Assembly (NCBI GenBank): GCA_943357025.1
Contig: CALRGA010000002.1
Coordinates: 1 to 39,170 of the forward strand
Reading direction: 5' to 3'
Length of the DNA stretch: 39,170 nucleotides
Source of the DNA: Candidatus Uhrbacteria bacterium RIFOXYB12_FULL_58_10
GTDB taxonomy: Bacteria; Patescibacteriota; Patescibacteriia; UBA9934; GWF2-40-263
Under the pieces are notes generated by a model. The model was not told the DNA's origin. It was given only the letters and a program-made list of their open reading frames with translations, and did not search any database. The translations under genes were made by a program, and so were the position numbers. This document shows, in pieces, positions 12,183 through 39,170 of the stretch; the first letter of the stretch is position 1; each line of letters begins with the position of its first letter.

Positions 12183-12183
12183 A

Positions 12184-12858: not shown

Positions 12859-12859
12859 A

Positions 12860-14650
12860 CTAGGGCTTCGACAGGGAAACGACCACCGTCTCGCCCTCTT
12901 CCAGTCCGCTCAGAATCTCCGTCATTCCTCCGTCCGCGCGGAGCCCGACCATAACCGTCCGTTCCTCGATCGTCCCGTCCGCGGCCTGGCGCCGAACGTA
13001 CTTGTAACCGCCCTTCGTAAGAACGGACCGGGACGGGACGGACAGCGCGTCGGCGCGCGCGGCGGCATGGACCGTGACGTTCGACGACATGCCAGGCCGA
13101 ATGAGCGAGAGGTCCTGTCCTTCCGCCAGCGTCACCTTCGCCTCGTAGAAGACGACCCCCTCGATGACCTTCTGCGCCGGATCGATCCCCGAAAGCGTCC
13201 CTGGGAAAACGCGCGCGTCGCCGAGCGCGTCGAACGTGACGTCGGACGCGTCGCCGACATGGATCTTGGAGACGTCCGATTCCGGGACGTCCATCGCGAT
13301 CTCGTATTGCGTCCCGGTCGACAGCACCGTGATCGCCGGCTGCCCGACGGCCGCGGACTCGCCCGCGTCGAACGCGACCGCCGTGACGATGCCGTCGATG
13401 GGCGAGACGATCCGCGTCTTCGCGAGGCGCGCCTCGGCGCCGGCGAGCTCGGCCTGCGCGGCGGCGATCGACGCGCGAAGCGAGGCCACGTCCACGTTGC
13501 GCGGCGCGACGACGATGCTCGCGAGCGAGGCGCTGGCGCGGGCGAGATCGGCGGAGCGAGAGGCGACGGCGGAGGCGGCGGTCGCCACGGCGCGGGTCCG
13601 CGAAACGGTCGCGGTCGCGAGCGCGTTCACGGAGGACGCGACGTCGTCGACGAGCGCGGCCTGCGCGGCGGCGAACGACTGCTTCGCGTTCGCGAGCGCG
13701 GTCCCGTCGGCGATCAGCGACGAGAGGGCCGAGGCGACGGCGGACTTGTACGCGATGGTGTCTTCGAGCGAGAGGTCGGCCGAGTCCGACACGGTCGCGT
13801 CGAGCACGCGCGCGGTTTGCAAAAGCGCCTCGGACGCGTCGCGGTACGACCGCTCGACGAGGGCGACCGCGGACGAGACGGACGAGTCGACGGTCGCGTC
13901 CGTCGCGAGAAACGCCGCCTCGGACGCGTCGCGGCTCAGCGCGGCAACCGCGAACGCGGCCGTCGCCTCCGACACGGTCTGCGACCCCTCGTTCCCAAGC
14001 ATGTCCTCGAACGTCTGGTTGTACAGATTGTTCTCGACGCCAAGCACGGTGTCCGCTTCCGAAAGCGCGTGACGCACCTCCGCGACGGCCGAGCGCGCCG
14101 ATTCCACGAGATCCTCGCGCGACGACGAGAGGGCTCGCGCCGTGTCCGTCTTCGCCCGCGCCAAATCCTGCGCCGCGCTCGTCACGGCCGCGCCCTGCAC
14201 CGCCGCGACCTGCGACTCGTCGGACTGCGCGGCAAGCAGCGCGGCCTGCGCCACCGCCACGTCGGCCTGCGCCACGGCGATTTCCTCCGAGGAAACCCCG
14301 GCCATCCTCGCGTCAAGCTCGGCCTGGGCCCGAGCGACCGAATCGCGCGCCTGCGACGCCGCGGCCGAAAGGTCGTCGGCGTTGAGCGACGCGAGCGTCT
14401 CCCCCGCCACGACCGTGTCGCCGATCGCGACCGCGACCGAGTCGACGGTTCCGGACGCGTTGAACGCGAGGCTGACGTCGTTGATCGTCTCCACGGTCCC
14501 GGTCACCTCGACCGTCTGCGCCAGCGATCCCATTCGGACGGTTGCCATCACGGGAGCCGGAACCGGCGCGGGCCGCGTGACGAAGTATCCGATCCCCGCC
14601 GCGGCGAATACGAAAGAGACAACAAGAAAGATGCGGGAACGTTTGATCAT
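12860..14650 (-). CDS. HlyD/MacA-family membrane-fusion (periplasmic adaptor) protein with a very long Ala-rich helical insert
   Basis: N-terminal TM. Lipoyl/barrel halves (..VEVTGTVETINDVSLAFNASGTVDSVAVAIGDTVVAGETLASL.. and ..RIVSPIDGIVTAVAFDAGESA..). A C-terminal beta-domain. Several hundred residues of Ala/Ser/Asp-rich helix in between. Operon with the ATPase and permease (1-nt gaps). Confidence 0.8.
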   Translation of the reverse strand: MIKRSRIFLVVSFVFAAAGIGYFVTRPAPVPAPVMATVRMGSLAQTVEVTGTVETINDVSLAFNASGTVDSVAVAIGDTVVAGETLASLNADDLSAAASQARDSVARAQAELDARMAGVSSEEIAVAQADVAVAQAALLAAQSDESQVAAVQGAAVTSAAQDLARAKTDTARALSSSREDLVESARSAVAEVRHALSEADTVLGVENNLYNQTFEDMLGNEGSQTVSEATAAFAVAALSRDASEAAFLATDATVDSSVSSAVALVERSYRDASEALLQTARVLDATVSDSADLSLEDTIAYKSAVASALSSLIADGTALANAKQSFAAAQAALVDDVASSVNALATATVSRTRAVATAASAVASRSADLARASASLASIVVAPRNVDVASLRASIAAAQAELAGAEARLAKTRIVSPIDGIVTAVAFDAGESAAVGQPAITVLSTGTQYEIAMDVPESDVSKIHVGDASDVTFDALGDARVFPGTLSGIDPAQKVIEGVVFYEAKVTLAEGQDLSLIRPGMSSNVTVHAAARADALSVPSRSVLTKGGYKYVRRQAADGTIEERTVMVGLRADGGMTEILSGLEEGETVVVSLSKP

Positions 14651-24721: not shown

Positions 24722-25146
24722 ATGCGGGGATTTACTCCAAGCTTGGTCAGGATCCTCGCCTGGCGCGGGAACATCTTCTTCGCGTCCTTCGGCTCGACGT
24801 GGTCGAATCCGAACGTGTGAAGGACGCCGTGGACGATGAGGAAGACGAGTTCGTCCCGAGTGGAATGCCGCATCTCCCTCGCCTGCCGAACCGCCTGCGG
24901 GTAGCAGAGCAGAATCTCGTTGGTCGTTTCGAACGACAGAACGTCCGTCACGTAATCATGCCCGCGCCATTTCTTGTTTAATGCACGCATCGTCTTCTCG
25001 GAGACGAACGCGATCGACAACTCGACGGGCTTTTTAACCTTCAGTTCCGACGAACACTCGGCCAGCGCGGCCTCAACCAGGCGACGAGGAAGTCGCTGTC
25101 CGCCCCGAAGGATCTCCTGGTTCAGCTCGAATCCGATCAAAGCCAT
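24718..25146 (-). CDS. ybeY: rRNA maturation RNase YbeY
   Basis: ..LSIAFVSEKTMRALNKKWRGHDYVTDVLSF.......EI..CYP.A..QA.E......DEL.FL.VHGVLHTFGFDH (zinc-binding H..LH..G.DH). Track ORF trimmed to ATG 25146 (MALIGFE..). 10-nt overlap with the upstream gene. Confidence 0.88.
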   Translation of the reverse strand: MALIGFELNQEILRGGQRLPRRLVEAALAECSSELKVKKPVELSIAFVSEKTMRALNKKWRGHDYVTDVLSFETTNEILLCYPQAVRQAREMRHSTRDELVFLIVHGVLHTFGFDHVEPKDAKKMFPRQARILTKLGVNPRI

Positions 25147-26135
25147 GTCACGCTGTTCAGCATCATCTTGAACGTCTGGAGATAGTCGACCGTCGCCTTC
25201 GCGGCCGTGGTCATCTTTACCGTCATTACGGAATCCTTCGAGAACACGTAATTCGTCATCTGATCCTCGGACACGAGCATCGCGGAGCCGTTCTTGGTCG
25301 TCGTCTTCGTGACGGACCCGTCGATTTCCTGCTTCTTGTACCACGCATCGGGGGTCGTGCCTTCCGGCATCCCAAGCTTGGCGAGCGCGATCGTCACCGT
25401 CTCGCCGGACGTCGCGACGATCGTCACGAGTCCGTCCGCCGCGGCCGGCTCGACCTTCCATATGGACGGGTAGAACAGCGAGTAGCCGGTTCCCTGGTGA
25501 ACCTTCACGAGCCCGGCGGCATACAGCGTTCCCGGCGACGTTCCGGCGGGATTGTAGCGATGGTACACCTCGTTTCCATCCAGGAATCCGTCGGAGTCCG
25601 TGTCCGGAAGCCGTGAATTGGTCCCGTAGATCAATTTCTCCTCGATGTCCGTCAGGCCGTCCGAATCCGTGTCCGTTCCTGGGACGACGGCCGTCGGGAA
25701 CGGGCTTTCGACCGGCTTCGGCACCTCGACCGGCTTGGGAGTTTCCACCGGCTTTGGCGTCGGCTTCGTGGCAGGGGTCGGAGTTGGGGTTGGTTTCACG
25801 ACAACGGGAACGACGACCGGAACGGGCTCCGGCTTCGTCGCGACGATGATTCCCGTGACGGCGAGCGCGACGACGACGATTCCGCCGGCGCCAAGCGCGA
25901 TCTTTTTCTTCGTCGACATTCCCTTCTTCGGCGCGCCCGGAACCCCGGGCTTTGGCGCCACGGCCACCGGAGGAGCCGTAACGGGCCGTGCCGCCGGCGC
26001 CGGAACCGCCATCTTCTTTCCGGTCGCGCCATGACGGTATTCCGCCGGCATCACGAACATGGCGGGCTCCGAAAGAGGGGCTCCGGCCGTCGATGGCTTT
26101 TCCATCTGCTGTTGCGGGTTCGCGATGTCGGACAT
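25137..26135 (-). CDS. Single-pass membrane protein with a Pro/Thr/Lys-rich stalk and thrombospondin-type-3-like Ca-binding repeats
   Basis: TM IALGAGGIVVVALAVTGIIVA. Stalk KPTPTPTPATKPTPKPVETPKPVEVPKPVE. DTDSDGLTDIEEKLIYGTN...PDTDSDGFLDGNEVYHRYNPAG. C-terminal globular domain. Confidence 0.7.
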   Translation of the reverse strand: MSDIANPQQQMEKPSTAGAPLSEPAMFVMPAEYRHGATGKKMAVPAPAARPVTAPPVAVAPKPGVPGAPKKGMSTKKKIALGAGGIVVVALAVTGIIVATKPEPVPVVVPVVVKPTPTPTPATKPTPKPVETPKPVEVPKPVESPFPTAVVPGTDTDSDGLTDIEEKLIYGTNSRLPDTDSDGFLDGNEVYHRYNPAGTSPGTLYAAGLVKVHQGTGYSLFYPSIWKVEPAAADGLVTIVATSGETVTIALAKLGMPEGTTPDAWYKKQEIDGSVTKTTTKNGSAMLVSEDQMTNYVFSKDSVMTVKMTTAAKATVDYLQTFKMMLNSVTWL

Positions 26136-26146
26136 ATAAAAGTTCG

Positions 26147-26776
26147 TTACGGAGCCGTCGTTCCGAATAATTTGCCTGTGCCGTTCGGATTGTATCCGCC
26201 CTTTACCTCGGCGCCGTCAAGATACGTGTCGCCGTCGGTGTCGGATTTCAGCGGGTTGGTCTTGTACGTGGAAACCTCCTCCTTGTCGAACAACCCGTCG
26301 GCGTCCGTGTCGGCCGACGTCGGGCTCGTGCCGAGCTTTGCTTCCTCGGCGTCGGTGAGGCCGTCCTTGTCCCGGTCGACGGTGTCGACGGGCGGAGCCG
26401 TCGTCGCGGGAGTCGGCGTTTCCTCCGGCATCTCGTCATCCGGCGTCGTCACGGCCTTCGGCGGCGTCTTCACGACGGGAGCGACGACGGCCGGCGGCTC
26501 TTCGATCACGGCGGGCTCGACGGGAACCGCGTCCGTCTTCGAGGCCATCATGAAGTACGCGATCCCAGCGGCCGAACCGACGACCACGACGATCGCCGCG
26601 ACCACGATGACCGGCTTCCACGGGAACGAGCGGCCCGAAGACGAGCTCGAAGACGGCGCCGATTCCGGCACGACCTCTCCGACCCTGCGGACGATCTCCG
26701 ACGCGGGCGGCGGAGGCGGGGCCGCGGATTCAACACCCGCGAAGATATCCTCTGGGGGTTTGACGTTCTCGAACAT
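26147..26776 (-). CDS. Single-pass membrane protein with thrombospondin-type-3-like repeats
   Basis: Track ORF 26147..26920 trimmed to ATG 26776 (MFENVKPPEDIF..) because the upstream codons are the intergenic repeat elements. TM PVIVVAAIVVVVGSAAGIAYFMM. DRDKDGLTDAEEAKLGTSPTSADTDADGLFDKEEVSTYKTNPLKSDTDGDTYLDGAEVKGGYNPNGTG. Confidence 0.65.
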   Translation of the reverse strand: MFENVKPPEDIFAGVESAAPPPPPASEIVRRVGEVVPESAPSSSSSSGRSFPWKPVIVVAAIVVVVGSAAGIAYFMMASKTDAVPVEPAVIEEPPAVVAPVVKTPPKAVTTPDDEMPEETPTPATTAPPVDTVDRDKDGLTDAEEAKLGTSPTSADTDADGLFDKEEVSTYKTNPLKSDTDGDTYLDGAEVKGGYNPNGTGKLFGTTAP

Positions 26777-26785
26777 ATGGGGGAA

Positions 26786-26838
26786 GTGGATACGAATCAA
26801 CGAATTGGCTACGGAACTACGAATGCTACGGATTTTTT
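26786..26838 (+). repeat. AT-rich intergenic element, copy C (left half only)
   Basis: GTGGATACGAATCAACGAATTGGCTACGGAACTACGAATGCTACGGATT matches the first ~48 nt of copy A with about 6 mismatches (by eye). It ends in a T-run and lacks the right arm. Confidence 0.55.
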
Positions 26839-26846
26839 CCTCGTCT

Positions 26847-26879
26847 CCCCTCCTTCCGCAAGGAGGGGTTAGGGGGTGG
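26847..26879 (+). repeat. GC-rich hairpin element, intergenic copy, abutting a stop codon
   Basis: CCCCTCCTT (26847-26855), ccgc, AAGGAGGGG (26860-26868), plus the tail TTAGGGGGTGG. It ends 1 nt from the TAA (26880-26882) of the Cys-rich protein gene. Confidence 0.5.
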
Positions 26880-27680
26880 TTATTGGGAAAGTGTTCCTGG
26901 CCCGTACGGATTATAGCCACCCTGGATCTCGATGAGATCCGTGTACCCGTCGCCGTCGGAATCTAGGTTTGGGTCGGGTTCGACGATCGCGGGTTCGACG
27001 GGCGCCGGCTCATCGCGATCCGGCGGCCCTACCAGCTCGGCGCACATCTCTCGGTCGGCCTCGATGGTGAGCGCGGCACATGCGGCCTGGTCATCGGACG
27101 CGACCGCGGCCTCGTAGGCTGCCAGGTCGTCGCACGTCTCCTGATCCTTCCCTCGTTCCGCGCAATTAGCCGACGTCAGCGGCCCGTCTACCGCGGACGC
27201 GCAGTTCGTCTGCTTTTCGGCATCAGTGATCTTATCGCAGTATGACTTGTCCATTCCCGCAAGAGCCAGCTTGAGATAGATCGCACTCGCGCATTTCTCT
27301 GCCTTTGTCGCATCCTCGATCAACGCGCAGCTGTCCGCGTCGTTCCGCTCACGCGCAATCGTCCAAATGCACGAGTCGCGATCCTTCCCCTCCAGCTGTC
27401 CGCACACGCTTGCCGCACCGGTCGCCTTCGCAGCCAGCAAGACCTTCTTGCGACGACACTCCTCCGGATCCGGCTGCTCCGCGCATCCAACGAGCGACGC
27501 CGCAAGCTGCGTCTCAACACGATCCATGTTCTGCGTGGCAATCTCAACCTTCTGCCGGCTCCGCACGAACAGCACGGCCCCGATGATCAATGCGACCGCC
27601 AAGACCGCCGCCCCCGCAATGAGGGCGACGATCTTCCAGGGAGGACGCTGCGTTTCGGTTGATTGGTCGAAGCCGTTCAT
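26880..27680 (-). CDS. Single-pass membrane protein with periodic Cys-rich helical repeats and a C-terminal thrombospondin-type-3-like motif
   Basis: Start taken at ATG 27680 (MNGFDQS..), 5 nt after the giant gene's TGA; the track start 27701 is a TTG inside that gene. TM WKIVALIAGAAVLAVALIIGAVLFV. 14 Cys spaced ~10-25 aa apart (..DPEECRR..SVCGQL..DRDSCIW..DADSCAL..AEKCAS..KSYCDK..QTNCAS..SANCAE..QETCDD..QAACAA..REMCAE). C-terminal DSDGDGYTDLIEIQGGYNPYGPG. Confidence 0.65.
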   Translation of the reverse strand: MNGFDQSTETQRPPWKIVALIAGAAVLAVALIIGAVLFVRSRQKVEIATQNMDRVETQLAASLVGCAEQPDPEECRRKKVLLAAKATGAASVCGQLEGKDRDSCIWTIARERNDADSCALIEDATKAEKCASAIYLKLALAGMDKSYCDKITDAEKQTNCASAVDGPLTSANCAERGKDQETCDDLAAYEAAVASDDQAACAALTIEADREMCAELVGPPDRDEPAPVEPAIVEPDPNLDSDGDGYTDLIEIQGGYNPYGPGTLSQ

Positions 27681-27685
27681 AGGGT

Positions 27686-30600
27686 TCAAGGTACGGGACA
27701 ATACGTGAATGCGATGTCGTCCAATGAGATGTATCCGCCGCCGTTGAAATCAACCGTCATCGGAATGTTCATTTCCTCGCCGGTACACTCGAAGTTCGTC
27801 GGGAACGGAAGCTCGCGATTGTGTCCGCTCGTAACCGTTCCAGGCGTCAACGTCTCGTCGACGGTCAGGCCGACGGTGACGCCGAGAACTGAGTCGATAA
27901 TCGCGTCGTACATCGTGGCTACGCCAGCCTCATCCTGCGCAGAGTATGAGTATGTCCTGGTAAGACAGTCCGATATGTCGTCGTAATCCTCTCCACAATC
28001 ATCGCTTGACAAATGAGCCATGTATGAGGCGTACGCATTCGTTGAAGTGGCAGTTATGCCTGCCGTGTAGATAAGAACGTCTCCGGACCCGCGAATCGCC
28101 GCGTCAGCTCCGACGTCATTGTCAGCAGAGCAACTGTTTAACAAACCATCTGCGACCTCCTTTGTGCAGCAGTAGTAATTGTAATAATCTGTTTCATTAT
28201 CACTTTCCTTGCCGCATGCGAGCGGGAGATATGAGCCGTAGCACGAGCCGGCGTTTGTAGAGGTCGTGCAGTAATCGTTTGACCTGTCTTCGAAGACCTC
28301 ACCGTCAGAGAGAAGTACGATGATTTTTGCATCTGCTGTGGTTTGATCCAGCTGTTGGATCGCATATTTCAACCCAGCATAGAACGGCGGTCCGGAATCG
28401 ATATCTGTCCCTGCTGCGTAGCCTTCCACCGTTGTAATCAGATCATTTTCGTCATTTGAGCCAAGCTCCATGTCAATAAGGTATCCTTCATTTGCGGTAC
28501 CAGGATTATAGAGCGCCCCGAGTCGCAGAAGTCCGATTTGCAAATCGCCAGACGATAGGGAGTCATACAGAGTGCTGATCGCGCTAGCTTCGGCGGCACT
28601 TACAAGGGCAATGCGACTTTGAGTTGAAGTATCATCCGACGCAATGGTAGCCCCGTTGATATCCCTGGTCATCGTGACGGTATAATCCGTAATGAAGTAC
28701 ACAGCCACGCTCGGGGTTTCGACGTTGCTCGTGTTCACATCCGCCGTGATCTTGGTTCCCACCGTGCAAGCCGGCAAACTCAGCGAGGCCTGGTCGATTT
28801 CTTCGCTCAACGGATCATAACTGTACAGGTCGATCGAATCCGAGGCGGCGGCGCCGACCTCTTCGGTCGTGGCGAGGACAGCGGTGGTTTCGTAGGTGAA
28901 CGGACAGGATGCCTCGCAAGTGAGCGAGCAGGTCGGGGCGACGCAGGTGCCGCCGTCGCAGGCGCTCTTGTCATTTATTCTCGTGGTGTGCGCGGTACCC
29001 GTCGAATCCGGATTCATCGTGCAGTATTCCCCGTTCTGCGTCCCGCCGTTGCAGATACCCATCTTGCGACAGGTGAATCCGCTTTCACATCCGGTTGCGG
29101 TCCCTTCATCCGTCGCGTCGCACGTTCCAGCCTGATCCATGGCATGATCGTCGACCGCGCCGTCACTGTCCGCATCGATGTATGCGTTGTCAAAGCAGTA
29201 GTACGGCAGGTCGCTTCCATCGCAGTACTCGGACCCGTTTACCTCGCCGTCGCCGCAGTACTCGCCCGATGTGGTCTTGTACTGGCAGTTGGCGGTGCAG
29301 TAGTGGCAGGTGCTGTCGTAGCTGGCGTCGCACGCCGTGCCGTTGTCCGACCCGTCGTCGCACGACTCCACGCCGGAGTACACCTCGCCGTCGCCGCACA
29401 CGTTTTCCTCGCAGGAAGTCGTGCACGCGTCGGTATCGTCGTCGTTGCCGTCGTCGCATTCTTCGGTTCCGTCCACGGACCCGTTGCCGCAGTATTCCTC
29501 GCTCACGCACGAGGTCCAGTCGTCCCAGGTACACATCAGGCGCTCGGCCGTCTTGCACGTTCGGGTTCGGGTCAGGTTGTAGGTGACGGTTCCGCACTCG
29601 AACTGACAGGTCGTGCGGCCGTCGACGGCATCCCCGATATACGAATCATGATCTGTTGCCCCGTCGGGTTGATCATCCTCACACGGGATCCCCTGGTCCG
29701 AAACGTCATCACAAAACCCATCCGTGCATGAACCACTGTCACAATTGGCAGGCGTTCCGTAACATGGCGTGCCAACGTCGCTCGCTCCGGAACAGACGAT
29801 CGAGGTTCCGCACGCCGCGCTTCCGTCGGGCGCCGTGGTTCCCGTTCCGCACGTTCCCGACGAGCAGTCGTCGTCGGTCGTGCATTCCGTTCCGTCGTCG
29901 CACAACGCGCCGGCCCAGGCCGCGTAATCGCCGTCGCATTCCTCGGAACCGTTGATTTCCCCGTCGCCGCAGCTCGGGCCAGGGCTCTTGCAGTCGTACG
30001 AGCAGGTTCCGGTCGGCCTTCGCTCCCACTGGCCGTTGGAATTCGCGCAGGAATTGAGGTACGCCCAGCTGGACGTGCCGTACGTCGCGTCGGTCCCGCT
30101 CATCAGATCACTGAAATTCGTTGATTCTCCGCAGTCGCATTCCTCGCCGCCGGCAAGGTAACCGTCGCCGCAGAAGAAGGCGGAATCGGTTGAGCAGTCG
30201 TCGCCGCAGTGGCCGTACGTGCCGTTTGCATCTCCGTCGTCGCACGTCTCGCCGGTTTCTACGACGCCGTTGCCGCAGGAATAATCTACGCACGCCGCTC
30301 CATCCTCATCCTCCGATTCGGTAACCGTCCTGTACGAGGAGCAGTCGCTCTCACAGGTCGTAGAAATTGTCCCGCCGTCCGTCCCACAGTCAATTGCCTC
30401 GCAGGTTCCCGTCGAGCAGTCGTCGTCGCTCGAGCAGAGGACCCCCTCGCCGATGCCGTCTCCGTCCGTATCGCACGCCGTATCGCCGGAGACGACGTCA
30501 CCGATCTCGCACGCCTCGTAGTTGTCGCTTGTCTCGTCCGTATTTCGAATCCCGTCTCCGCAGATGGCGGAAACGCCGATTTCGTCGCCGGTACAGAATG

Positions 30601-33600
30601 CTTCCGCGCTCGATCCTTTGATGAATCCCCTCTCCAGATCAGCGGAGTCGCCGTCATAATCATACTCAAGCGTCACCGTCCCGAGGTCGGTCGGATCGAT
30701 CTCGCCGTACCAGACGTCATCCTCGTACTCAAGCGCCGCCTTCAGCTCGAACGACAGGCCGCCGACGCTTCGGTAGCCGTAGACGTGCGATTCGTCGGGA
30801 CACATGAAGGTGGCCGCGATGGAATTCCAGCAGGTGGCAGACTCGTAGTTCTCCCCGTCGCAGGCAAAAAACTCGTTCAGCGGATCGGACGGTACCGAGG
30901 AGCCTAGCGCGTTGCCGAGCCCCGATGCCCATGATGGCCAGGCGCTAAAGGAAAACGAGCTGATGAACGTACCGTCCGCGAGCTTCGGAACGGACGCCTC
31001 GCACGTCTCGTCGCCCGGGCAGGAATCGTCGGAGGTGCACGCCTGGTTGGTCGTGACCGAACACAGGCCGTTCGCCTCGCCGTAATCGTCGAGCAGGCCC
31101 GCGATGACGGTTACGTCCTGGAGGCGCTGTAGATCGCGCGTCAGCTTGGCCTTTTCCGCGTCGCAGGTCTGGCCGCTTTCGCAGTCTCCGTCCCATTCGC
31201 AGGCGATAAATTCGCCCGTGTCGGCATCCGTCTGGTAGCTTTCATCCGCGGCGGACTGGCATAGGTTGACGTCCGTGACGATGCTGTCGTTCGCGTTGAA
31301 CGACCAGTTCTCAAGAATCTGGGAGAAGATTTCCTGGGATGTCGCCTCGGCATCTTCCGTATAGGAAACGGCGACCACGTTCGAATAGATCGTGCCGAAC
31401 TTCACGTTCGTCGCGGCGACGTACGTGGTGTTTCCGTCCGTGACGGCGTTGTATCCGTCCACGGTCGTGCCCGACGGCGATCCGGTGAAACCCATTTCGT
31501 CGTACCAGGCGTACGGGGAAAGATACGTCCCGTTCGGCAGCACGCGCACGCCGATGGCGTCGGACGTTCCCTCCACCTTGAAGATGAGCTCCTGGATGAT
31601 GTCCGTCGTGTACGAGGTCACGTCGATGGGAACGTACGTTCCGTCCACAAGCGTGCCGATTTCCGGAAGATCATCCGACTCGTCGCCGGCGACGCCGTAG
31701 TCGCGGCAGTAGAAGAAGCTGAATTTCGACAGGGAATCCACGTACGGGAACCCGATCGTCGGGAGGTTGTCGCAGACGTTCGCAGTGAGAAGAAGCGTTC
31801 CGCTTACGGCGTCGTTTGCGTCCTCGAACGTGTTGGATTCGTCGAACGTCGCGGTCGAGACGACGTACTCGGTACCGGTGAGCCCGGACGCGGTCGCGGT
31901 GGACGTCTCGACATCCGTTGACTCGCTTGCTTCGGGCGTGTCGATGACGTTCGTGTTCGTCGTCGAGTCCGCCGCGACGGACGTTCCCCACGTCCAGCTC
32001 CAGCCGTACGCGGTCGTTTCCTGGATGGCCACCTCCTGGCCGCCGCGGATCGAATAGGCGCTCGCAAGAACAGAGTGCGTCTCGTCCGCCGCGGTGAAGT
32101 ATCCGATACTCGGATCGGCGATGTACGGAACGGTCAGCGAATCAACCGTTCCAAGGTCCTCGACCGTTACCGAGTCGAGCGTACAGATTTCCGGTCCGGT
32201 CGTGAACGTGCTGACGACAATGTTCGCGTCGCCTTCCAGCCCTTCCAATCTCACGGCCCCCGTCCCTGACGCGTCGATGCTCACCGCGTTCTCGGAAAGC
32301 ACGCCGGAGATCGTGTCGGCGGCATTCGTCGGATCTGCGTCTTCCACCACCACGAGCTGGTACTCTGAGTCAGCCTCAAGCGCGTCGGCGATGTTCAGCG
32401 CGACGTGGGATCCGACGGAATCGGTCATCGATTCGGTCGTAAGATCGTACGTGACGGGAATGATACAGGCGAAAGTTTTGTCCTGATCGGCGGCCGAAAG
32501 CTCGGCGTGCGCGACGGACGCGAAGATTTGGCTCACGGAACGGACAACCCAATTCCAAGCCCTGGCGATCCAGGACCGCGACGTCGATTCCGAGAACGCG
32601 AGGTACGATTGCGTGTACGTCGACGGACAGTTCAAGGCGGTAACCTCCTCGCCGTCGAGCAGTGTCAGCTCGAGATACAGGTTCTGGTGACCCTCGCCGT
32701 AGTTGAAGATGCCGTCCTCGTTCGAATCGGTCCAGGAGGACAGCGACGTGGAATCCATGACATCCGTGAAGTTGACGTAGATCGCCGTGTTTCGACACAC
32801 GTCGCCATCGCCGTCCATCGGATACTGTCCATCGACCTCCGGGCGCTCAAAGCAGCAGCCCGACGTCCCGCTTCCGTACAGCTCGGTATTGCCGCAATCC
32901 TCATCGGTAACGCTGGAGCAGATGAGCGTCAGGGCACCATCGCCGGTTTCCCCGCTATCCGACTCGGTCGCGGTAATCGTCGCGGACGCCGTTCCGTCGA
33001 CGACGTCGGACGCAGCCGATGCGCTGATCCTTGAGACACCCCAGTAACCGTAGTGTGCGTCTGTGCTGGCGGCCGCGGCATCACATTCCTCGCCGCCGGT
33101 GTCCTCGTCGCCCGTAATCACGCCGTCGCCGCAGTAGCTCGAATAATCCAGGGAAGATCCCTCGCTCAAGCCTTCCGACGAGCAGCCGTCTCCGTCATCC
33201 GTGCCGCCGTCGTCGCAGTCCTCGGATTGATCCGACCATGCGCCATCCACGCCCGTATAATCGACGCGACCGTCTCCGGAACACGGAGCGACGACCGGCA
33301 GGCAGGAACCGCCACTCGATCCGTCATCCATGTCGTCGCACAACGAACCAATTCCCGTGCAGTTTACTCCTGACAACGAGCACTCGAATGCGCAGACGTC
33401 GGCGCCCTCATACAAACATTCCGCTGAGCAGCCGTCGTCGTCGACGGTGTCGCCGTCGTCGCAGTCCTCGCCCTCCTCGGGAACGCCGCCATTTCCGCAG
33501 GTAGAGTATGATCCCTCGTCAACCACCTCGCCTCCCTCGTTCAGACAGACCGAGGAACAGCCGTCGCCGCTGAAGGAGTTATCGTCGTCGCAATCCTCGC

Positions 33601-36600
33601 CTCCTGTGTACTTCGCATAATCGATGGTTCCGTCGCCGCAGCGGGTGCCCGCCTTGCTAGAGCCGGCGTTGAGACAAACGGAGGAGCAGCCGTCCGTGTC
33701 GATCGCATTTCCGTCGTCGCACTCCTCGCCGAGCGAAGATTCGAAGCTACCGTCGCCGCACGTGGCGGGATCCGAATTTCCAACGAACAGGCAGGACGAC
33801 GAGCAGCCGGATCCGCCGTCGCATTCCTCACCGCCGGCCGTAAGGTCGCCGAAGGAATCCTCGTTCGACGTGTGCGTCACGTCCCCGTCGCCGCACACGG
33901 GGTCGTACTTGGACAGAGTCACGCCGGAGTGAAGACAGCTGGTGGAGCATCCGGCCTCGAGACGCGTGGTCAAAAGCAGCGGATCCACAGCGGAACGCAG
34001 CATTGTCGCTACGTCGTCCGTCGTTTCCGGCTTTGCGTTTGACGTCGAATCCACCGACTCCCACGCGTCCCAGTCGTATCCGGACGCGTCAAGCTGCTGG
34101 CCATCCACCTCGCAGTCGTCTGGAGAGCCGAACGGAACGGCCTGCCAGAGCGTCTGCTCGCCAATAATCGTCGCGGACGCGGCGACCGGATCGGTCACGA
34201 CGCGGTCGACCGCACAAACTTCCGTCGTGTCCTTGGTCTTGAATTTCCAGGAAAAGGCATCCTCAAAGTATCCGTTGTCATCGGAAGGATAGTTGCTGCC
34301 CGACTCGGACAGGGCCACGCCGGAAACGGACGTGACCGATCCGTCGATTACGATACGGTACCAAGTATTGGCCTCGAATTGCTTCTGGCCTTCGCCCGAA
34401 TGAACGAGATCAAGCAAGGTGGTTCCGTAGACATGGCTCACGGAGTAGTCCGAGGCCGTCCAGAGGTCGCCAGCCACGATCTCCTCGTACGCGCACAAAT
34501 CATCATGGCACGTATATATTTCCACCGTGTCCACCGAGAGATCGCTTGCCATCGCGGTATTGAACGTCGCGCTGATCGCCGCGTTCAGGCACACCGTGTC
34601 GCAGCTCGGGGTCCAGGAAACGACCTCCGGATCGGTGAAGTTGATGGTGAGCTCGCCATTGTCTTCCGGGTCGACGTCACCGTCGGGGTTGGCGGCGGTC
34701 GCCTTGATGTTGACCGGCGATCCGCTAAGGGTTTCGGCGAGCGCGGTGGCGACGTTGGCGCAGGAATAGACGGTCAATCCGCCCTCGGATGTTGTGGACG
34801 CAACGGACGCGGGAATCGACGCCAAATCCGACTCAGACGACGTCCAGGTCCAACCGTACGCCGTGCAGTTCAGAGCGACGCAATAGTCGTTTTCAGAAAG
34901 TGCCTGGCCGGAATAATTCACCCGTTCGTTCTCAGCAACCGCGGTAAACTCCGACGGCATGGCGGACACGGACCCGATCTTGCACGGTTCCGTCGACGTG
35001 GAAGTCGTGAACGTCCAGGAGTAATCGTTCGCCATGTACGCGGCCGGGGTGTCTTCCGTTTCAATCGTGTGGATGCCGGACGAAAGGAGCGTCACGGTAT
35101 ACGTGGTGCTTGGAAGGAACTCGCCATCCGCTGGGTTCCACTCGAAAAGATATGCGCTCGTAGTGCGGATCTCGCCTTCCACGACGGTTTCATCCTCCTT
35201 GGTCACCACGACTTTCGGTGCGGGATCCGTCCAATCAATCGCCTGGTCGAACGTCGCGGTCACCGCCGAGTTTACGCAGATGTCCTCGGACGCGCTTCGG
35301 AAATTCCAAGGCGCCGGCGAGGTTCCCCTGCCCGATTCGCAAAAGATACTGACCTTCGGAGTCGCCGGAATGTTACCGGTGGAGAACATCCAGGAGTAGT
35401 GAGACTCCTCGGGTTCCTTGGGACAGCTCACGGAGCATGATCCGTTGCCGCAGCATTCCTCGCCCGTTCCGCAGGTAATCGTCCCCTCTGTACAGCTTCC
35501 CACCTGGAAATTCAGGCCGTTGGAGCGGTAGCCGGAAGAATCGAGGACGTACACGGGTCCGGTGGCAGATCCGACCGGGACGGTGTCGGTGGTAACGGAC
35601 GCGTCGTACCAGCTCAGGGTCTGCGCCGAAACTTCCGAGGAGAACAAAACATCGGCCATGTCATATTTCGAGCCAAGATTGTCTCCCGAAATCACGACGC
35701 CGTCCGCCGTAACGGTTGCCGTCGACGCGGGACCGGAGCTCGGGTCGATGTTACAGATGCCCGGGCCGGGAGTTCCTCCGAGGATCGTGAACTCGACCCC
35801 TTCGCTCTCAGCGCCCGGGACGGTTCGAACTGTGACCGCGTACGACGATCCCGTCGCGACGGGATCGCCCGATCCTTCTGTCGCATAGTATTCAGCCGGA
35901 ACCTTGAACGTAATTTCCGTATCCTCCCACGTGTCGTCGCCGCACGCCTCGGGGAAATCGAAATCGCCGTACGCGATCCCCGTCGAGTCCGTGAAGATGA
36001 CGTTTCCCTTCCCCGTGCCGAAGCCCGTTCCGGTAATCGTGACGTACTGCCCCGGCGGCCCCCAGTCGTCGTGCGAGTCACAGCTGTCGCCGTCGCCGCG
36101 CCCGTCGCATTCCTCGCTGAATCCGTCCACGGCAGCACAAAGCGATCCTCCCTCGCTCCCGCTGCACCCCATCCATCCGGAAACCACCGCCGCGATAATC
36201 GGATCGCTCGACGTTTCCGAGTCGATAACCGTGAATGAAACCTTGTTGGAACCCTGGCGCAGCGAGACGCAGTCGCCGTCCGAGCCGCAGTCCTCGTCAG
36301 TGTCGCAGAACGCGTCGGATCCCGAGCAGCGCATCGTCTCGCAGGTTTCGCCGGATGCCTCCGCGCAGTCCAAGTCCGTCGAGCAAATCTCGCCCCGCAC
36401 TCCCTGGGACGTCGCGCAGACGTAATCCCCCACCCAGACCTGGGTAGAATAGGCGCGCGCGTTCAGCAGCGGAACCTGCGCGGAGATTTCCGTGTCCTTC
36501 CAGCTGAAGTATTCGGAAGCCTCGTAGTTTTCAAAGTAAACCGTGGACGTCCCTTGGTCCGTTTCTCCCGCCGAAAAGAAATTATTTCCTGACAATCCGA

Positions 36601-38371
36601 CCACGGAGCGTCCGACCCCAAACGTCGGCGAAGGCGGGCAGAGGCCCGGGCGAACGACCGAGTTGACGTCGAAGTCGTTGATCGTCGCGCCGTAATCGTC
36701 GTTCGTGTCGTCGACGTACGCCTCGGTGTGCGTCGCGTCGATTCCGGTCGTGACGCGAATCGGGCCGTCTTTCATCGAGCCGGAAACCTGCACGATGATC
36801 TGCTCGTCCGTCCAGGTGGAACCTGTCTCGCACTGGTACTCGGACGCCGTCACGGGATTCGAGTACGTTCCGTTCGTATCGACCGCGCCGAGGAACTGAA
36901 CGGAGCCAGGGGTCGTGCCGAACCCGGAACCGATGATCGAGACGATATTTCCTTCCGCGCCGTCTCCGGGCGAGACGGACGTGATCTGCGGGATGCTCGC
37001 GCAGACGCCGTCGATGACGAGTCCCGTCGTCGAGTCAATCTCTCCCGAGCAATATCCGCTCGCGCATTGCGCGTTCGACGTGCACGGCGACCCGTCGCAC
37101 GCTCCGCAGGTGTTTCCGCCGCAGTCGACTTCTTCCTCCGCAAGGTCCTCCGAGACGTCCGGAACCACGTCCTGCACGCCGTTGTTGCATGACGCCGGAT
37201 AGATTTCGACCGTCACGTCGGACGAGGTTTTCGAATGCCCGGCACAATCGACTCCTGTTGCCCGAACGGCGTGCGTTCCCGTCGCGTAGTCGGAAGAGAC
37301 GTACCATTCCGTTCCGTCCGCCGTGGAGAAGTAGTTCTCGGAGGAAAGTGCGCCCACGGTCGAATCTGTGGCCAGGGACGCGTCGTAAATTGAGTCTCCG
37401 TTGTCGATCGTAAAATAGAGGCTGGAGACGCCTGTGTCATCCAAGGTATATGCCTGAAGAGGGCGTATCTCGTTCGTAAACACGGCAGCTCCCTCCTCCG
37501 GCGCCTTCAGGTCTATTGTCGTCGGCCCCTCGGTGTCCACGTCCGATCCCGTCGTGAACGAGAACGTGCACGGGTACGTCGCGTCGCACTTGTACGACAG
37601 GTCGTTCGAGCTCTTCAGGAATGTCTCACTCAGCTCGATATCATAGTCCGTATTCGCGTCGAAGCAGCGGTCCGACACTTTATATTCAGCTCCGCAATCC
37701 TGGGTCGGAACGAACGAGATCGATTTCGACGAGGTCGCTGCGCTGCCGTCCGTCGCCTGGAACGTTCCAAGAACGTCCGTTCCCGACTTTTGGACGCGGA
37801 TTCCGCCGTTATTGATCGACTCAAGCGTTGCTCGTTGGCTGAAGAGAAACTGCAGCTGGAGATTCTTCAGGGCATACGCGCATTCCGTGTTGACGCTCGT
37901 CAGCACGAACTGGCTCGACGTCCCTCCCCCGTCGCCGTACCCTCCTCCCGTTCCGCCGCTCCCCGACGACGTGCTCGTTCCGCCAAGCGCGCCGACCAGC
38001 TGTCCGAGAATGAACTGCACGATCGCGAATGCCGACAGGATGATGACCAGCCCGACAATCGCGCTGGAGAAAAGCTTCTTCGCGCTTTTAATCTTCTCGT
38101 CGTTCCCGCCGGACGTCATGTATTTGAACCCGCCGATGAGGATCAGGATCACCGCGAGGATGCCGAGGATCGACATCACGGTTCGGATGAGCCGCGCGAT
38201 TGTGATCGTGAGTCCGTCTCCGGTCGAGAACCCGGCCTGCTCGGCAAAGGTGCTGAGGCCGGACGTCGGATCGACGACCTGGGCAAACGCGTGCGGGGCA
38301 ACCGCAAGGGCTCCTGCCGTCACGAAGACGGCGACAAGGATCGAGAGGAGGCTCTTGCGGGAAAACATCAT
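27686..38371 (-). CDS. Giant (3,561 aa) secreted/membrane-anchored multidomain surface protein: signal peptide, TrbC/VirB2-like two-helix anchor, Ig-like and IPT/TIG-like modules, Myxococcus-type cysteine-rich (DUF4215-like) repeat arrays, C-terminal vWA-like domain
   Basis: Single uninterrupted 10,686-nt ORF with gene-like GC3 bias throughout. aa 1-30 MMFSRKSLLSILVAVFVTAGALAVAPHAFA|Q. aa 55-128 ..IARLIRTVMSILGILAVILILIGGFKYMTSGGNDEKIKSAKKLFSSAIVGLVIILSAFAIVQFILGQL. IPT-like PQITSVSPGDGAEGNIVSIIGSGFG. About 13 CGDG/CGNG...E(E/D)CDDG...DGCS..C units (aa 1493-1765 and 2604-3055). vWA-like ..VAVYFITDYTVTM....KIIVLLSDGE.. Confidence 0.85.
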   Translation of the reverse strand: MMFSRKSLLSILVAVFVTAGALAVAPHAFAQVVDPTSGLSTFAEQAGFSTGDGLTITIARLIRTVMSILGILAVILILIGGFKYMTSGGNDEKIKSAKKLFSSAIVGLVIILSAFAIVQFILGQLVGALGGTSTSSGSGGTGGGYGDGGGTSSQFVLTSVNTECAYALKNLQLQFLFSQRATLESINNGGIRVQKSGTDVLGTFQATDGSAATSSKSISFVPTQDCGAEYKVSDRCFDANTDYDIELSETFLKSSNDLSYKCDATYPCTFSFTTGSDVDTEGPTTIDLKAPEEGAAVFTNEIRPLQAYTLDDTGVSSLYFTIDNGDSIYDASLATDSTVGALSSENYFSTADGTEWYVSSDYATGTHAVRATGVDCAGHSKTSSDVTVEIYPASCNNGVQDVVPDVSEDLAEEEVDCGGNTCGACDGSPCTSNAQCASGYCSGEIDSTTGLVIDGVCASIPQITSVSPGDGAEGNIVSIIGSGFGTTPGSVQFLGAVDTNGTYSNPVTASEYQCETGSTWTDEQIIVQVSGSMKDGPIRVTTGIDATHTEAYVDDTNDDYGATINDFDVNSVVRPGLCPPSPTFGVGRSVVGLSGNNFFSAGETDQGTSTVYFENYEASEYFSWKDTEISAQVPLLNARAYSTQVWVGDYVCATSQGVRGEICSTDLDCAEASGETCETMRCSGSDAFCDTDEDCGSDGDCVSLRQGSNKVSFTVIDSETSSDPIIAAVVSGWMGCSGSEGGSLCAAVDGFSEECDGRGDGDSCDSHDDWGPPGQYVTITGTGFGTGKGNVIFTDSTGIAYGDFDFPEACGDDTWEDTEITFKVPAEYYATEGSGDPVATGSSYAVTVRTVPGAESEGVEFTILGGTPGPGICNIDPSSGPASTATVTADGVVISGDNLGSKYDMADVLFSSEVSAQTLSWYDASVTTDTVPVGSATGPVYVLDSSGYRSNGLNFQVGSCTEGTITCGTGEECCGNGSCSVSCPKEPEESHYSWMFSTGNIPATPKVSIFCESGRGTSPAPWNFRSASEDICVNSAVTATFDQAIDWTDPAPKVVVTKEDETVVEGEIRTTSAYLFEWNPADGEFLPSTTYTVTLLSSGIHTIETEDTPAAYMANDYSWTFTTSTSTEPCKIGSVSAMPSEFTAVAENERVNYSGQALSENDYCVALNCTAYGWTWTSSESDLASIPASVASTTSEGGLTVYSCANVATALAETLSGSPVNIKATAANPDGDVDPEDNGELTINFTDPEVVSWTPSCDTVCLNAAISATFNTAMASDLSVDTVEIYTCHDDLCAYEEIVAGDLWTASDYSVSHVYGTTLLDLVHSGEGQKQFEANTWYRIVIDGSVTSVSGVALSESGSNYPSDDNGYFEDAFSWKFKTKDTTEVCAVDRVVTDPVAASATIIGEQTLWQAVPFGSPDDCEVDGQQLDASGYDWDAWESVDSTSNAKPETTDDVATMLRSAVDPLLLTTRLEAGCSTSCLHSGVTLSKYDPVCGDGDVTHTSNEDSFGDLTAGGEECDGGSGCSSSCLFVGNSDPATCGDGSFESSLGEECDDGNAIDTDGCSSVCLNAGSSKAGTRCGDGTIDYAKYTGGEDCDDDNSFSGDGCSSVCLNEGGEVVDEGSYSTCGNGGVPEEGEDCDDGDTVDDDGCSAECLYEGADVCAFECSLSGVNCTGIGSLCDDMDDGSSGGSCLPVVAPCSGDGRVDYTGVDGAWSDQSEDCDDGGTDDGDGCSSEGLSEGSSLDYSSYCGDGVITGDEDTGGEECDAAAASTDAHYGYWGVSRISASAASDVVDGTASATITATESDSGETGDGALTLICSSVTDEDCGNTELYGSGTSGCCFERPEVDGQYPMDGDGDVCRNTAIYVNFTDVMDSTSLSSWTDSNEDGIFNYGEGHQNLYLELTLLDGEEVTALNCPSTYTQSYLAFSESTSRSWIARAWNWVVRSVSQIFASVAHAELSAADQDKTFACIIPVTYDLTTESMTDSVGSHVALNIADALEADSEYQLVVVEDADPTNAADTISGVLSENAVSIDASGTGAVRLEGLEGDANIVVSTFTTGPEICTLDSVTVEDLGTVDSLTVPYIADPSIGYFTAADETHSVLASAYSIRGGQEVAIQETTAYGWSWTWGTSVAADSTTNTNVIDTPEASESTDVETSTATASGLTGTEYVVSTATFDESNTFEDANDAVSGTLLLTANVCDNLPTIGFPYVDSLSKFSFFYCRDYGVAGDESDDLPEIGTLVDGTYVPIDVTSYTTDIIQELIFKVEGTSDAIGVRVLPNGTYLSPYAWYDEMGFTGSPSGTTVDGYNAVTDGNTTYVAATNVKFGTIYSNVVAVSYTEDAEATSQEIFSQILENWSFNANDSIVTDVNLCQSAADESYQTDADTGEFIACEWDGDCESGQTCDAEKAKLTRDLQRLQDVTVIAGLLDDYGEANGLCSVTTNQACTSDDSCPGDETCEASVPKLADGTFISSFSFSAWPSWASGLGNALGSSVPSDPLNEFFACDGENYESATCWNSIAATFMCPDESHVYGYRSVGGLSFELKAALEYEDDVWYGEIDPTDLGTVTLEYDYDGDSADLERGFIKGSSAEAFCTGDEIGVSAICGDGIRNTDETSDNYEACEIGDVVSGDTACDTDGDGIGEGVLCSSDDDCSTGTCEAIDCGTDGGTISTTCESDCSSYRTVTESEDEDGAACVDYSCGNGVVETGETCDDGDANGTYGHCGDDCSTDSAFFCGDGYLAGGEECDCGESTNFSDLMSGTDATYGTSSWAYLNSCANSNGQWERRPTGTCSYDCKSPGPSCGDGEINGSEECDGDYAAWAGALCDDGTECTTDDDCSSGTCGTGTTAPDGSAACGTSIVCSGASDVGTPCYGTPANCDSGSCTDGFCDDVSDQGIPCEDDQPDGATDHDSYIGDAVDGRTTCQFECGTVTYNLTRTRTCKTAERLMCTWDDWTSCVSEEYCGNGSVDGTEECDDGNDDDTDACTTSCEENVCGDGEVYSGVESCDDGSDNGTACDASYDSTCHYCTANCQYKTTSGEYCGDGEVNGSEYCDGSDLPYYCFDNAYIDADSDGAVDDHAMDQAGTCDATDEGTATGCESGFTCRKMGICNGGTQNGEYCTMNPDSTGTAHTTRINDKSACDGGTCVAPTCSLTCEASCPFTYETTAVLATTEEVGAAASDSIDLYSYDPLSEEIDQASLSLPACTVGTKITADVNTSNVETPSVAVYFITDYTVTMTRDINGATIASDDTSTQSRIALVSAAEASAISTLYDSLSSGDLQIGLLRLGALYNPGTANEGYLIDMELGSNDENDLITTVEGYAAGTDIDSGPPFYAGLKYAIQQLDQTTADAKIIVLLSDGEVFEDRSNDYCTTSTNAGSCYGSYLPLACGKESDNETDYYNYYCCTKEVADGLLNSCSADNDVGADAAIRGSGDVLIYTAGITATSTNAYASYMAHLSSDDCGEDYDDISDCLTRTYSYSAQDEAGVATMYDAIIDSVLGVTVGLTVDETLTPGTVTSGHNRELPFPTNFECTGEEMNIPMTVDFNGGGYISLDDIAFTYCPVP

Positions 38372-38377
38372 AGCAGT

Positions 38378-39170
38378 TTATTCGTAGGAATCTGGAAGCA
38401 GGTGGGTGTCTCCTGGATTGGCCGTGCCGTAGCCGTCCGGGTACGTTGTTTCACAGGCTTTTTCCTGCGGTTGACCGTTGCAGCAGTAGGCAGTCCCGGC
38501 CTTCGTCCCACACATATTGGTGGAAGATCCAATGCCGTCAACGTTCGCCTTCGGTCCATCGGGCGGAAACATACAAATCTGGTACGCCGACTTCACGTTA
38601 CGCATCACAACAGGGTCGTATGCCCAGCCAAGGTCGTCGATGCTAACCATCGTCGGATGGTCGATGCTGGCGGTGGTGTACAGCGCGTCGCCATCGCCGT
38701 CCAGGAAGTCTGTCTTGCCCGTCGTGAACCAGAACTGGTACCACGGGTCGGGCCAGAGCGATACGTTGTCGGTGTTCAGCGTTGACGAGCGCATCGGGAC
38801 GGAAAAGTCGACCGTGACCGGCGCGTCGTTGGCCGCTTCCTCCTCGCGAATGTCGGGACGCATCGCCATGATGTACGGGACGACGTTGTTGATCTCGTCG
38901 GTGATCGTGTTCGTCCAGTATGCCGTGTCATCGGGCGGACCCTCACCCTCCTCGTCCTCGTCGCCGTCGAGCGAGTTCGCGGCCGCGTCCACGAGCCCGT
39001 CGAACGAGACGCCCACGGGCTCGGCCTGCGGGGCGTCGGTGAGCGAGACCGTCGCTGCCTTCGCCGTGATCGTCAGCTCGTCGTCGCTGCCGTCATCGGT
39101 CGCGGGAAGGCAGTAGATGGTGTCGCCGCACGGGTCGACGCCGCACGCCTCGGTGGGCGTGAACTCGATG
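38378..39170 (-). CDS. Surface protein with an Ig-like (SbsA/Big_5-style) module and a Cys-rich C-terminus; 5' end off the right edge
   Basis: The track ORF 38378..39016 begins at an internal GTG. My translation of the same frame stays open to the window edge (..IEFTPTEACGVDPCGDTIYCLPATDDGSDDELTITAKAATVSLTDAPQAEPVGVSFDGLVDAAANSLDGD..). C-terminal ..CMFPPDGPKANVDGIGSSTNMCGTKAGTAYCCNGQPQEKACE... The stop is 6 nt before the giant gene's ATG. Confidence 0.6.
   Translation of the reverse strand, partial: IEFTPTEACGVDPCGDTIYCLPATDDGSDDELTITAKAATVSLTDAPQAEPVGVSFDGLVDAAANSLDGDEDEEGEGPPDDTAYWTNTITDEINNVVPYIMAMRPDIREEEAANDAPVTVDFSVPMRSSTLNTDNVSLWPDPWYQFWFTTGKTDFLDGDGDALYTTASIDHPTMVSIDDLGWAYDPVVMRNVKSAYQICMFPPDGPKANVDGIGSSTNMCGTKAGTAYCCNGQPQEKACETTYPDGYGTANPGDTHLLPDSYE

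Follow-up and report, generated by a model that had tools for sequence, protein, structure and literature searches.

The stretch of DNA analysed here (the window) comprises 39,170 nucleotides of contig CALRGA010000002.1 from the Candidatus Uhrbacteria assembly GCA_943357025.1 and carries on its minus strand a giant gene that begins with ATG and runs unbroken for 3,561 codons (27686..38371). A sequence-only reading had described a single uninterrupted 10.7-kb open reading frame (ORF) here, with a third-position bias similar to that of the neighbouring genes, and both features were recovered: the G+C content at third codon positions (GC3) was 0.75, compared to 0.74-0.89 in the neighbouring genes, in a window of ~62% G+C overall. 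The ORF is confirmed as a real gene. Its product is a protein of 371 kDa with an isoelectric point of 4.05, in which 596 Asp plus Glu residues stand against 112 Lys plus Arg, and its 170 Cys residues (4.8%) all lie beyond residue 155. The earlier proposal of an exported, disulfide-rich, multi-module surface protein was supported. The module types named in that reading were all present (Table 1), as revealed by Pfam and TIGR matches, hidden Markov models (HMMs) built from the family and reading of the sequence, and, for the von Willebrand factor A (vWA) domain, by homologues and AlphaFold2.

Table 1. Modules of the giant protein and adjoining features, with their positions in the window (aa, residues of the giant protein).
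Feature	Position	Strand	Basis
Whole gene, putative giant modular pilin/adhesin of 3,561 aa	27686..38371	-	ORF and translation, colinear orthologues
aa 1-30, Sec-type signal peptide (n-region MMFSRKS, h-region, AFA↓Q)	38282..38371	-	sequence reading
aa 52-125, T4SS_pilin (PF18895, VirB2/TrbC-like) hairpin	37997..38218	-	Pfam
aa 129-155, Gly/Ser-rich linker	37907..37987	-	sequence; also in homologues
aa 157-392, Big_5-like (157-276), then Ig-like (278-392) module	37196..37903	-	family HMMs, Pfam segments
aa 393-960, four IPT/TIG-like modules alternating with Cys knots (393-459, ~650-760)	35492..37195	-	Pfam TIG, family HMMs
aa 1020-1380, two Big_5 (SbsA-type Ig) modules (1020-1125, 1245-1380), separated by a spacer	34232..35314	-	Pfam 5e-11, 2e-7
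aa 1492-1767, first TIGR02232/DUF4215 cysteine-rich acidic repeat array, six units	33071..33898	-	TIGR, Pfam, family HMMs
aa 1840-2194, family-specific region, Big_5-like at its start	31790..32854	-	alignment A4; PDB and Pfam negative
aa 2195-2600, most conserved central core, two subdomains	30572..31789	-	conservation profile, AlphaFold2
aa 2699-3053, second myxo-type Cys-repeat array, at least five units plus short knots	29213..30277	-	Pfam segments, family HMMs
aa 3215-3497, vWA domain with variant MIDAS	27881..28729	-	alignment A2, homologue Pfam matches, PDB profile, AlphaFold2/Foldseek
aa 3498-3561, C-terminal beta-sandwich, family-conserved ...F-T-Y-C-P end	27689..27880	-	alignment, AlphaFold2
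Strain-variable cassette, C-terminal ~520 aa of the giant protein together with the whole of D1	26750..29250	-	comparison with L001
Gene U, 3' part, running past the window end	38378..39170	-	orthologue L003:8090-9994
D1, 266 aa, one transmembrane helix, Cys-containing helical repeats, C-terminal TSP3-like repeat	26880..27680	-	
D2 (26147-26773) and D3 (25137-26135), single transmembrane helix, Pro-rich, bacterial TSP3 repeats	25137..26773	-	Pfam TSP3_bac 2e-10, 5e-4

Modules of the giant protein

The N-terminus carries the signal peptide predicted by the sequence-only reading, which is of the Sec type, and A30 and the AxA-like cleavage site are conserved among homologues (alignment A1). The two hydrophobic helices also described there correspond to residues ~57-84 and ~101-125 and flank the Lys-rich loop TSGGNDEKIKSAKK, a layout that, signal peptide included, is conserved in alignments A1 and A7. 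This hairpin was significantly matched by T4SS_pilin, the type IV secretion system (T4SS) pilin model PF18895, over residues 52-121 (38.9 bits with the whole protein and 41.9 bits with the segment, vs. a cut-off of 26.6). Two further models gave lower matches, TrbC (PF04956) being weak (E = 0.06) and NF045849, a pilin-like family of mycoplasma integrative and conjugative elements, reaching 1e-8 but remaining under its cut-off. The prepilin motif G↓F/M-x4-E was absent from the N-terminus, which had no Pfam match to N_methyl or T2SSG either. Judged from its sequence, the hairpin qualifies as a genuine T4SS pilin module of the VirB2 type, and given a VirB2-like topology the residues after ~125 would be extracytoplasmic. 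The Gly/Ser linker reported behind the hairpin was found in homologues as well.

Free-standing relatives of this module were detected in a sister Uhrbacteria metagenome-assembled genome (MAG), in which an array of four small PF18895 pilins of 116-232 aa is encoded (L064:6229-8572). The first 150 residues of the giant protein are 53% identical to the 143-aa pilin of this array (L064:7302-7730), with much higher identity within both helices. The first pilin of the array (232 aa) carries a short Cys-rich C-terminal extension, and it is possible that it represents a 'mini' modular pilin.

Module boundaries in the stalk that follows were set with Pfam, TIGR models, HMMs built from the family and a regular expression. 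The region of residues 157-392 is conserved in the homologues P0002-P0006, and its Ig-like module (278-392) gave weak matches to Big_7 and Big_13. At least four IPT/TIG-like modules had been claimed, and four were located with family HMMs at residues 461-542, 575-635, 763-860 and 866-960, with a Pfam TIG score of 37.6 bits vs. a cut-off of 20.9. The SbsA/Big_5-style modules were likewise found, in four Big_5-like regions (157-276, 1020-1125, 1245-1380 and one from ~1841), with a Pfam Big_5 score of 43.6 bits vs. a cut-off of 23.6. The two arrays of CGDG..EECDDGN..DGCS..C repeats reported previously correspond to the TIGR02232/DUF4215 type, and TIGR02232 matched five stretches of the protein (55.2 bits vs. 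20.8), whereas DUF4215 was detected on a segment of it at 2.3e-12. Finally, six short C.(S/T)DDDC..G.C knots, also noted before, were identified by regular expression.

In the central part of the protein, residues 1840-2600 had no homologues among Pfam and PDB sequences when the family profiles A3 and A4 were used. Residues 2251-2550 are nevertheless among the best-conserved of the giant protein in an alignment of 20 proteins, and the AlphaFold2 model of residues 2195-2600, obtained with 21 homologous segments, reached a pLDDT (predicted local distance difference test) of 87.5 and a pTM (predicted template modelling score) of 0.88. In this model one subdomain is weakly PsbP/Mog1-like and the other is formed by a long helix with a beta-sheet. 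Foldseek searches with the core model returned PsbP alone (E = 1e-3), and the structure search of the viral library BFVD gave only weak phage-lipoprotein matches. A type IV pilin or pseudopilin head at residues ~2400-2560 (KAKLTRDLQRLQD...DPLN...YGYRS...LEY) was considered and not supported, with no pilin in the Foldseek top 50 of the high-confidence model of the whole core and a probability of 1.2% in hhalign against an approximate EpsG sequence.

With regard to the C-terminus, which had been read as vWA-like, Pfam missed the domain in the protein's own copy and it became apparent only through homologues and a structural model. VWA or VWA_2 matched 12-13 of 18 aligned homologous C-termini (best 1.3e-14), and the family consensus VDVVFVTDLSGSM...GTPT...KIIVLLSDG has an intact metal ion-dependent adhesion site (MIDAS; DLSGS...GTPT...SDG). 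In the giant protein and its closest relatives this site reads D3229-Y-T-V-T, and the loop Thr is lost (GPPFY) while the Asp of LLSDG is kept. The family vWA profile matched 7w6b, SpaC, PilB and Mfa5 in the PDB at 1e-9. An AlphaFold2 model of residues 3091-3561 (pLDDT 73.9) produced 223 PDB matches with Foldseek at E <= 0.001, all of vWA type, the top ones being without exception pilus-tip adhesins, PitA (3e-13), SpaC (1e-10), Mfa5 (2e-10) and PilB (6e-9), followed by integrin beta I-like and anthrax-receptor vWA domains (TMt ~0.7 to the latter). At the level of the predicted structure, the vWA fold of the C-terminal domain is established. Structure prediction by segment followed by Foldseek, suggested in the earlier reading as a check, assigned this fold to the tip and left the core without a convincing relative. 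The extreme C-terminus (...F-T-Y-C-P-x(1-2), aa 3552-3561, 27689-27720, minus strand) is conserved in the family with a nearly invariant Cys, and could be a cross-linking or docking motif.

A conserved family with a strain-variable tip

The architecture had been described as chimeric and apparently undescribed. It is not a singular chimera, and the layout proved to be the standard one in a large family of orthologues, which occupies a conserved place on the chromosome. A word-indexed homologue search was weak on a protein of this composition, yielding 1 match with the C-terminus, 10 with the N-terminus and 0 with the central-core alignment. A scan with the N-terminal pattern (alignment A1, one genome per species) detected at least 478 relatives, from which 79 loci were kept for comparison at the locus level, and ~45 of these 79 had complete ORFs of 3,000-3,700 aa. 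As for recurrence of the full architecture, query coverage was 98-99% in at least 11 species-representative MAG loci and 80-96% in many more, and a full-length alignment of 20 proteins was colinear, with identities of 30-55% per 50-aa bin. When residues 1840-2600 were searched with HMMER against 1.84 billion representatives, 1,257 clusters were matched at E <= 1e-3, 1,140 at 1e-10 and 492 at 1e-30, most full-length matches being proteins of 3,000-4,200 aa aligned at the same relative position.

Among 89 full-length clusters at 50% identity, the pilin module was detected in 86, and pilin, vWA and C-terminal domain together in 44; members without vWA end otherwise, for example in an fn3 array or in a pair of C-type lectin domains. 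Dozens of species-level MAGs, mainly of Uhrbacteria and Magasanikbacteria, share the complete layout from end to end. Members have been public since the GW2011 genomes, under names such as 'hypothetical protein', 'cysteine-rich repeat protein', 'VWA/VWFA domain-containing protein' and 'IPT/TIG domain-containing protein'. An exact database look-up of the giant protein gave no identical entry, the public allele differing in the C-terminal cassette, and comparison of the whole protein with PDB sequences gave nothing useful. The literature search revealed no paper describing the family and no characterised family with its complete domain order, in agreement with the sequence-only reading. The giant gene is, therefore, a member of a widespread, conserved and uncharacterised Candidate Phyla Radiation (CPR) family, not a unique chimera.

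That the host is a CPR bacterium, which the earlier reading had put forward as a condition, was borne out by the FtsZ of the window, identical to that encoded on CALRGB010000001.1 (195.7 kb) of GCA_943357095.1, and by the closest loci among species-representative genomes, which belong to Candidatus Uhrbacteria MAGs (Patescibacteria/Parcubacteria group). About 30 third-party MAG records titled 'uncultured Gammaproteobacteria' (L009, L013-L015, L025-L027 and others) carry the locus with the same synteny, and the organism labels of these Patescibacteria-type loci look wrong.

The locus of GCA_943357095.1 (L001) was used as the comparison strain for the window. Both are ~100% identical from 32747 to ~29300 and again below ~26700, whereas inside the cassette in between the identity drops to 31-85%, with many indels. 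The G+C content of the cassette is 0.57, compared to 0.614 in the rest of the giant gene. The C-terminal alleles of the giant protein are homologous (46% identity), those of D1 share 61% amino-acid identity, and the giant protein of L001 has 3,597 aa, the 36-residue difference falling wholly within the cassette. Because the mosaic boundaries are so sharp, the comparison indicates that the cassette was apparently exchanged through allelic replacement by recombination and not through local mutation. A metagenome scan for further near-identical strains gave none, with best matches at 43-45% identity. A third allele of the vWA tip was found in P0001, a 496-aa protein with an MreB-like N-terminus encoded on a short ENA contig (2,620 bp) that is probably chimeric or misassembled.

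The window also encodes ybeY, dgkA, ftsA, ftsZ, nrdR, htrA, pyruvate kinase, a MacB-type ABC system, initiation factor IF-3, tmRNA and tRNA-Asp, and therefore the giant gene is chromosomal and lies among housekeeping genes. The order U - giant gene - D1-D2-D3 - ybeY-dgkA-ftsA-ftsZ is kept in relatives, and the upstream neighbour of the giant gene recurs in 66 loci. The L003 orthologue of U, 634 aa in length, combines a signal peptide and a PF18895 pilin module with two Big_5 domains, so that U is also a pilin fusion and two such genes stand in tandem, 6 nt apart. On the other side, D1 begins 5 nt past the stop codon of the giant gene, and D1, D2 and D3 share a layout of N-terminal transmembrane helix, Pro-/Cys-rich spacer and C-terminal D.D.DG..D..E...G.NP (TSP3) repeat. 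D1 and vWA co-occurred in 16/16 vs. 13/24 cases (p = 0.001), a comparison confounded by the TSP3 repeat and transmembrane helix of D2 and D3 and not relied on here.

Elsewhere in the window, the tmRNA (3470-3867, plus strand; Rfam 132.8 bits) has an unusually long tag peptide according to ARAGORN (ANVFAKAKNMIASAFSVPTFSMVVA). The same program called a tRNA-Ala(cgc) at 13387-13467 (plus strand) within a HlyD-like ORF (12860-14650), which was unconfirmed by Rfam and is probably a false positive. A MacB-type permease (MacB_PCD, FtsX), an ABC ATPase and a 596-aa HlyD-like adaptor lie together at 10950-14650 (minus strand), in a CPR genome that is presumably monoderm.

Likeness to known systems and possible function

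The T4SS of Patescibacteria is of the monoderm type, includes VirB2-like pilins and is essential in Southlakia (PMC12102498, PMC12857230). The known pilins of this type have ~100-230 aa and are often arrayed near virB4, and a PrgB-like adhesin was not detected in a survey of these systems (PMC12102498). The giant protein resembles VirB2/TrbC-like PF18895 pilins in its signal peptide, its two hydrophobic helices with a basic loop and its significant PF18895 match, but differs in a C-terminal extension of ~3,400 aa and in its housekeeping-gene surroundings, and is far larger than any described.

The nearest analogues in function are modular pilins and pilus-tip adhesins, although the features that define those families are absent from the giant protein. 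PilB of Streptococcus sanguinis is a modular type IV pilin with a vWA adhesin module (PDB 7b7p; PMC8179133), and it is among the best profile and structural matches of the tip of the giant protein. In both, a functional module would be grafted onto a pilin module, the two being represented here by residues 3215-3497 and 52-125, respectively, although by analogy only. PilB has 426 aa and a class III signal peptide, cut by the prepilin peptidase, and is assembled by the type IV pilus machinery, whereas the giant protein carries a Sec-type AFA↓Q signal and a VirB2-type hairpin, and its stalk is eight times larger. In the other top matches of the tip (PitA 7w6b, SpaC 6m3y and Mfa5 6to1) the vWA domain is, as in the giant protein, flanked by beta-sandwich domains at the distal end of the fibre. 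However, PitA and SpaC are attached through LPXTG and sortase and Mfa5 through strand exchange, whereas the giant protein would be anchored at its N-terminus; it has no LPXTG sorting motif and ends in ...DIAFTYCPVP.

The likeness to the giant non-fimbrial adhesins of Gram-negative bacteria, namely SiiE and the LapA/RTX adhesins, consists of a very large, acidic, multi-Ig-domain fibre with ligand-binding modules near its distal end. These adhesins are exported by type I secretion systems, without a Sec signal; their RTX repeats and secretion signals lie at the C-terminus, and they contain few cysteines, if any, in contrast to the apparently Sec-exported giant protein with its 4.8% Cys, in which Pfam scans of the whole protein and of segments gave no RTX/HemolysinCabind match. 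With the Myxococcus-type TIGR02232/DUF4215 proteins only the building block is shared, in the form of the two repeat arrays, and to our knowledge no characterised protein with this repeat has the overall architecture of the giant protein.

Taken together, the sequence and the models make it probable that the giant gene encodes a cell-surface attachment fibre of Candidatus Uhrbacteria, a 'modular VirB2-type pilin' anchored to the membrane or to a pilus. The protein would be exported by the Sec pathway, and after cleavage of its signal peptide the hairpin would insert in the manner of VirB2/TrbC, its two ends facing outward and its Lys-rich loop facing the cytoplasm. As the hairpin would place both ends outside, the acidic, Cys-rich remainder would be extracytoplasmic and oxidatively folded. 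If extended, such a fibre would have a reach of the order of 100 nm, its distal vWA domain would bind a ligand on a host cell or surface, and a swap of the tip plus D1 cassette would change the binding specificity. The hairpin may be a simple membrane anchor, or it could plausibly co-polymerise with the small PF18895 pilins of the lineage, given its 53% identity to a free-standing one. As VirB2-like pilins have been reported for the Patescibacteria T4SS and no PrgB-like adhesin has been found, we infer that the giant-protein family is a candidate for the missing adhesin of this system.

Several points weigh against an attachment fibre of this kind. No Pfam VWA model matched the copy of the giant protein, even at E <= 1, the confidence of the tip model is moderate, and the altered MIDAS makes metal-dependent ligand binding by this tip uncertain. 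No T4SS machinery gene adjoins the giant locus in the window or in L003, the neighbours being housekeeping and TSP3-repeat genes. In addition, the chief activity could reside in residues 2195-2600 and not in the tip, because the most conserved part of the protein has no assignable function.

A tentative alternative, which refines the mode of anchoring without contradicting an adhesin role, is that the protein is a true polymerising minor pilin. The T4SS would extract the PF18895 module from the membrane and build it into a VirB2-like pilus of small pilins, or place it at the pilus tip, and the 3,400-aa stalk and vWA tip would be displayed as in a T4SS counterpart of PilB and PilC of S. sanguinis. 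The identity of the module to a free pilin of the four-gene array, the second, shorter pilin fusion (634 aa) found directly upstream in all relatives and the presence of a modular pilin, PilB, among the structural neighbours of the tip (PMC8179133) are consistent with this possibility, as is the literature on a Patescibacteria T4SS with VirB2-like pilins and yet no adhesin. However, in the window and in L003 the giant locus is unlinked to virB4 or other T4SS genes, no T4SS gene was recognisable beside the L064 pilin array either, and an appendage of 340 kDa on a VirB2-type subunit is without known precedent.

Compared to the surface-fibre reading, the remaining explanations are less well supported. 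It is unlikely that the protein is a structural, S-layer-like component of the envelope, in which a static spacer or coat would self-associate or touch the cell wall through its vWA, lectin or fn3 ends. Big_5 (SbsA-type) and TIG modules are indeed common in S-layer and envelope proteins, the position beside the division genes ftsA and ftsZ is conserved and housekeeping-like, and the membrane proteins with TSP3 repeats encoded downstream might act as its partners in the envelope. Against these stand the replacement of the tip at the strain level and its swapping across the family (vWA, C-type lectin, fn3), both typical of ligand-recognition modules under diversifying pressure rather than of structural lattices, as well as adhesins as the best structural matches and a single-copy monomer of 3,561 aa with an N-terminal membrane hairpin, unlike known S-layer subunits.

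Delivery of a polymorphic toxin, with the variable C-terminus as effector and D1 as immunity protein or partner as in contact-dependent inhibition (CDI) or Rhs loci, is highly improbable. The joint replacement of the last ~520 aa and the adjacent gene in otherwise ~100% identical strains is a signature of such loci, but the C-terminal alleles are homologous to each other and both have vWA adhesin-type folds, and Pfam detected no toxin or pre-toxin domain in the C-terminus of the giant protein. Moreover, D1 is a membrane-anchored, Cys-rich, TSP3-bearing and apparently extracytoplasmic protein rather than a small cytoplasmic immunity protein, and D1-like genes accompany the family generally.

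Finally, an assembly artefact with mis-joined internal repeats, or a pseudogene still open by chance, would fit a metagenome-assembled source with repetitive protein modules, but can practically be dismissed given the neighbour-like GC3, an independent assembly ~100% identical across 3.6 kb of the giant gene, and the lack of DNA tandem repeats within it (Tandem Repeats Finder) together with the colinear, complete ORFs of ~45 independent assemblies, the last two of which make a mis-assembly or chimeric join very unlikely.

Implications for attachment in Patescibacteria

Knowledge of how CPR/Patescibacteria recognise and hold their hosts comes largely from cultivated Saccharibacteria. T4SS with VirB2-like pilins are widespread in Patescibacteria, and essential in the single system tested, but are not known to have a substrate or adhesin, and the survey detected no PrgB-like one (PMC12102498). 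The family described here, in which a VirB2-type pilin is fused to a disulfide-rich stalk of ~3,400 aa and an adhesin-type tip, is conserved across Uhrbacteria, Magasanikbacteria and relatives, and would carry the concept of 'modular pilin' beyond type IV pili, into another pilin superfamily. Two of its features call for an explanation, the tip-plus-D1 cassette that co-varies and the conserved central core, which, as ~400 residues that are highly conserved, confidently modelled and without known match, is a target in itself. In its broadest and rather speculative form, the proposal would be that the family comprises the first 'modular VirB2-type pilins', with giant stalks and exchangeable tips, that these are the missing adhesins of the essential Patescibacteria T4SS or pilus, and that the strain-variable tip-plus-D1 cassette sets the host cells to which a given Uhrbacteria strain attaches. 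As the tip varies from strain to strain and within the family, the family members are concrete, testable candidates for an attachment organelle and for determinants of host range.

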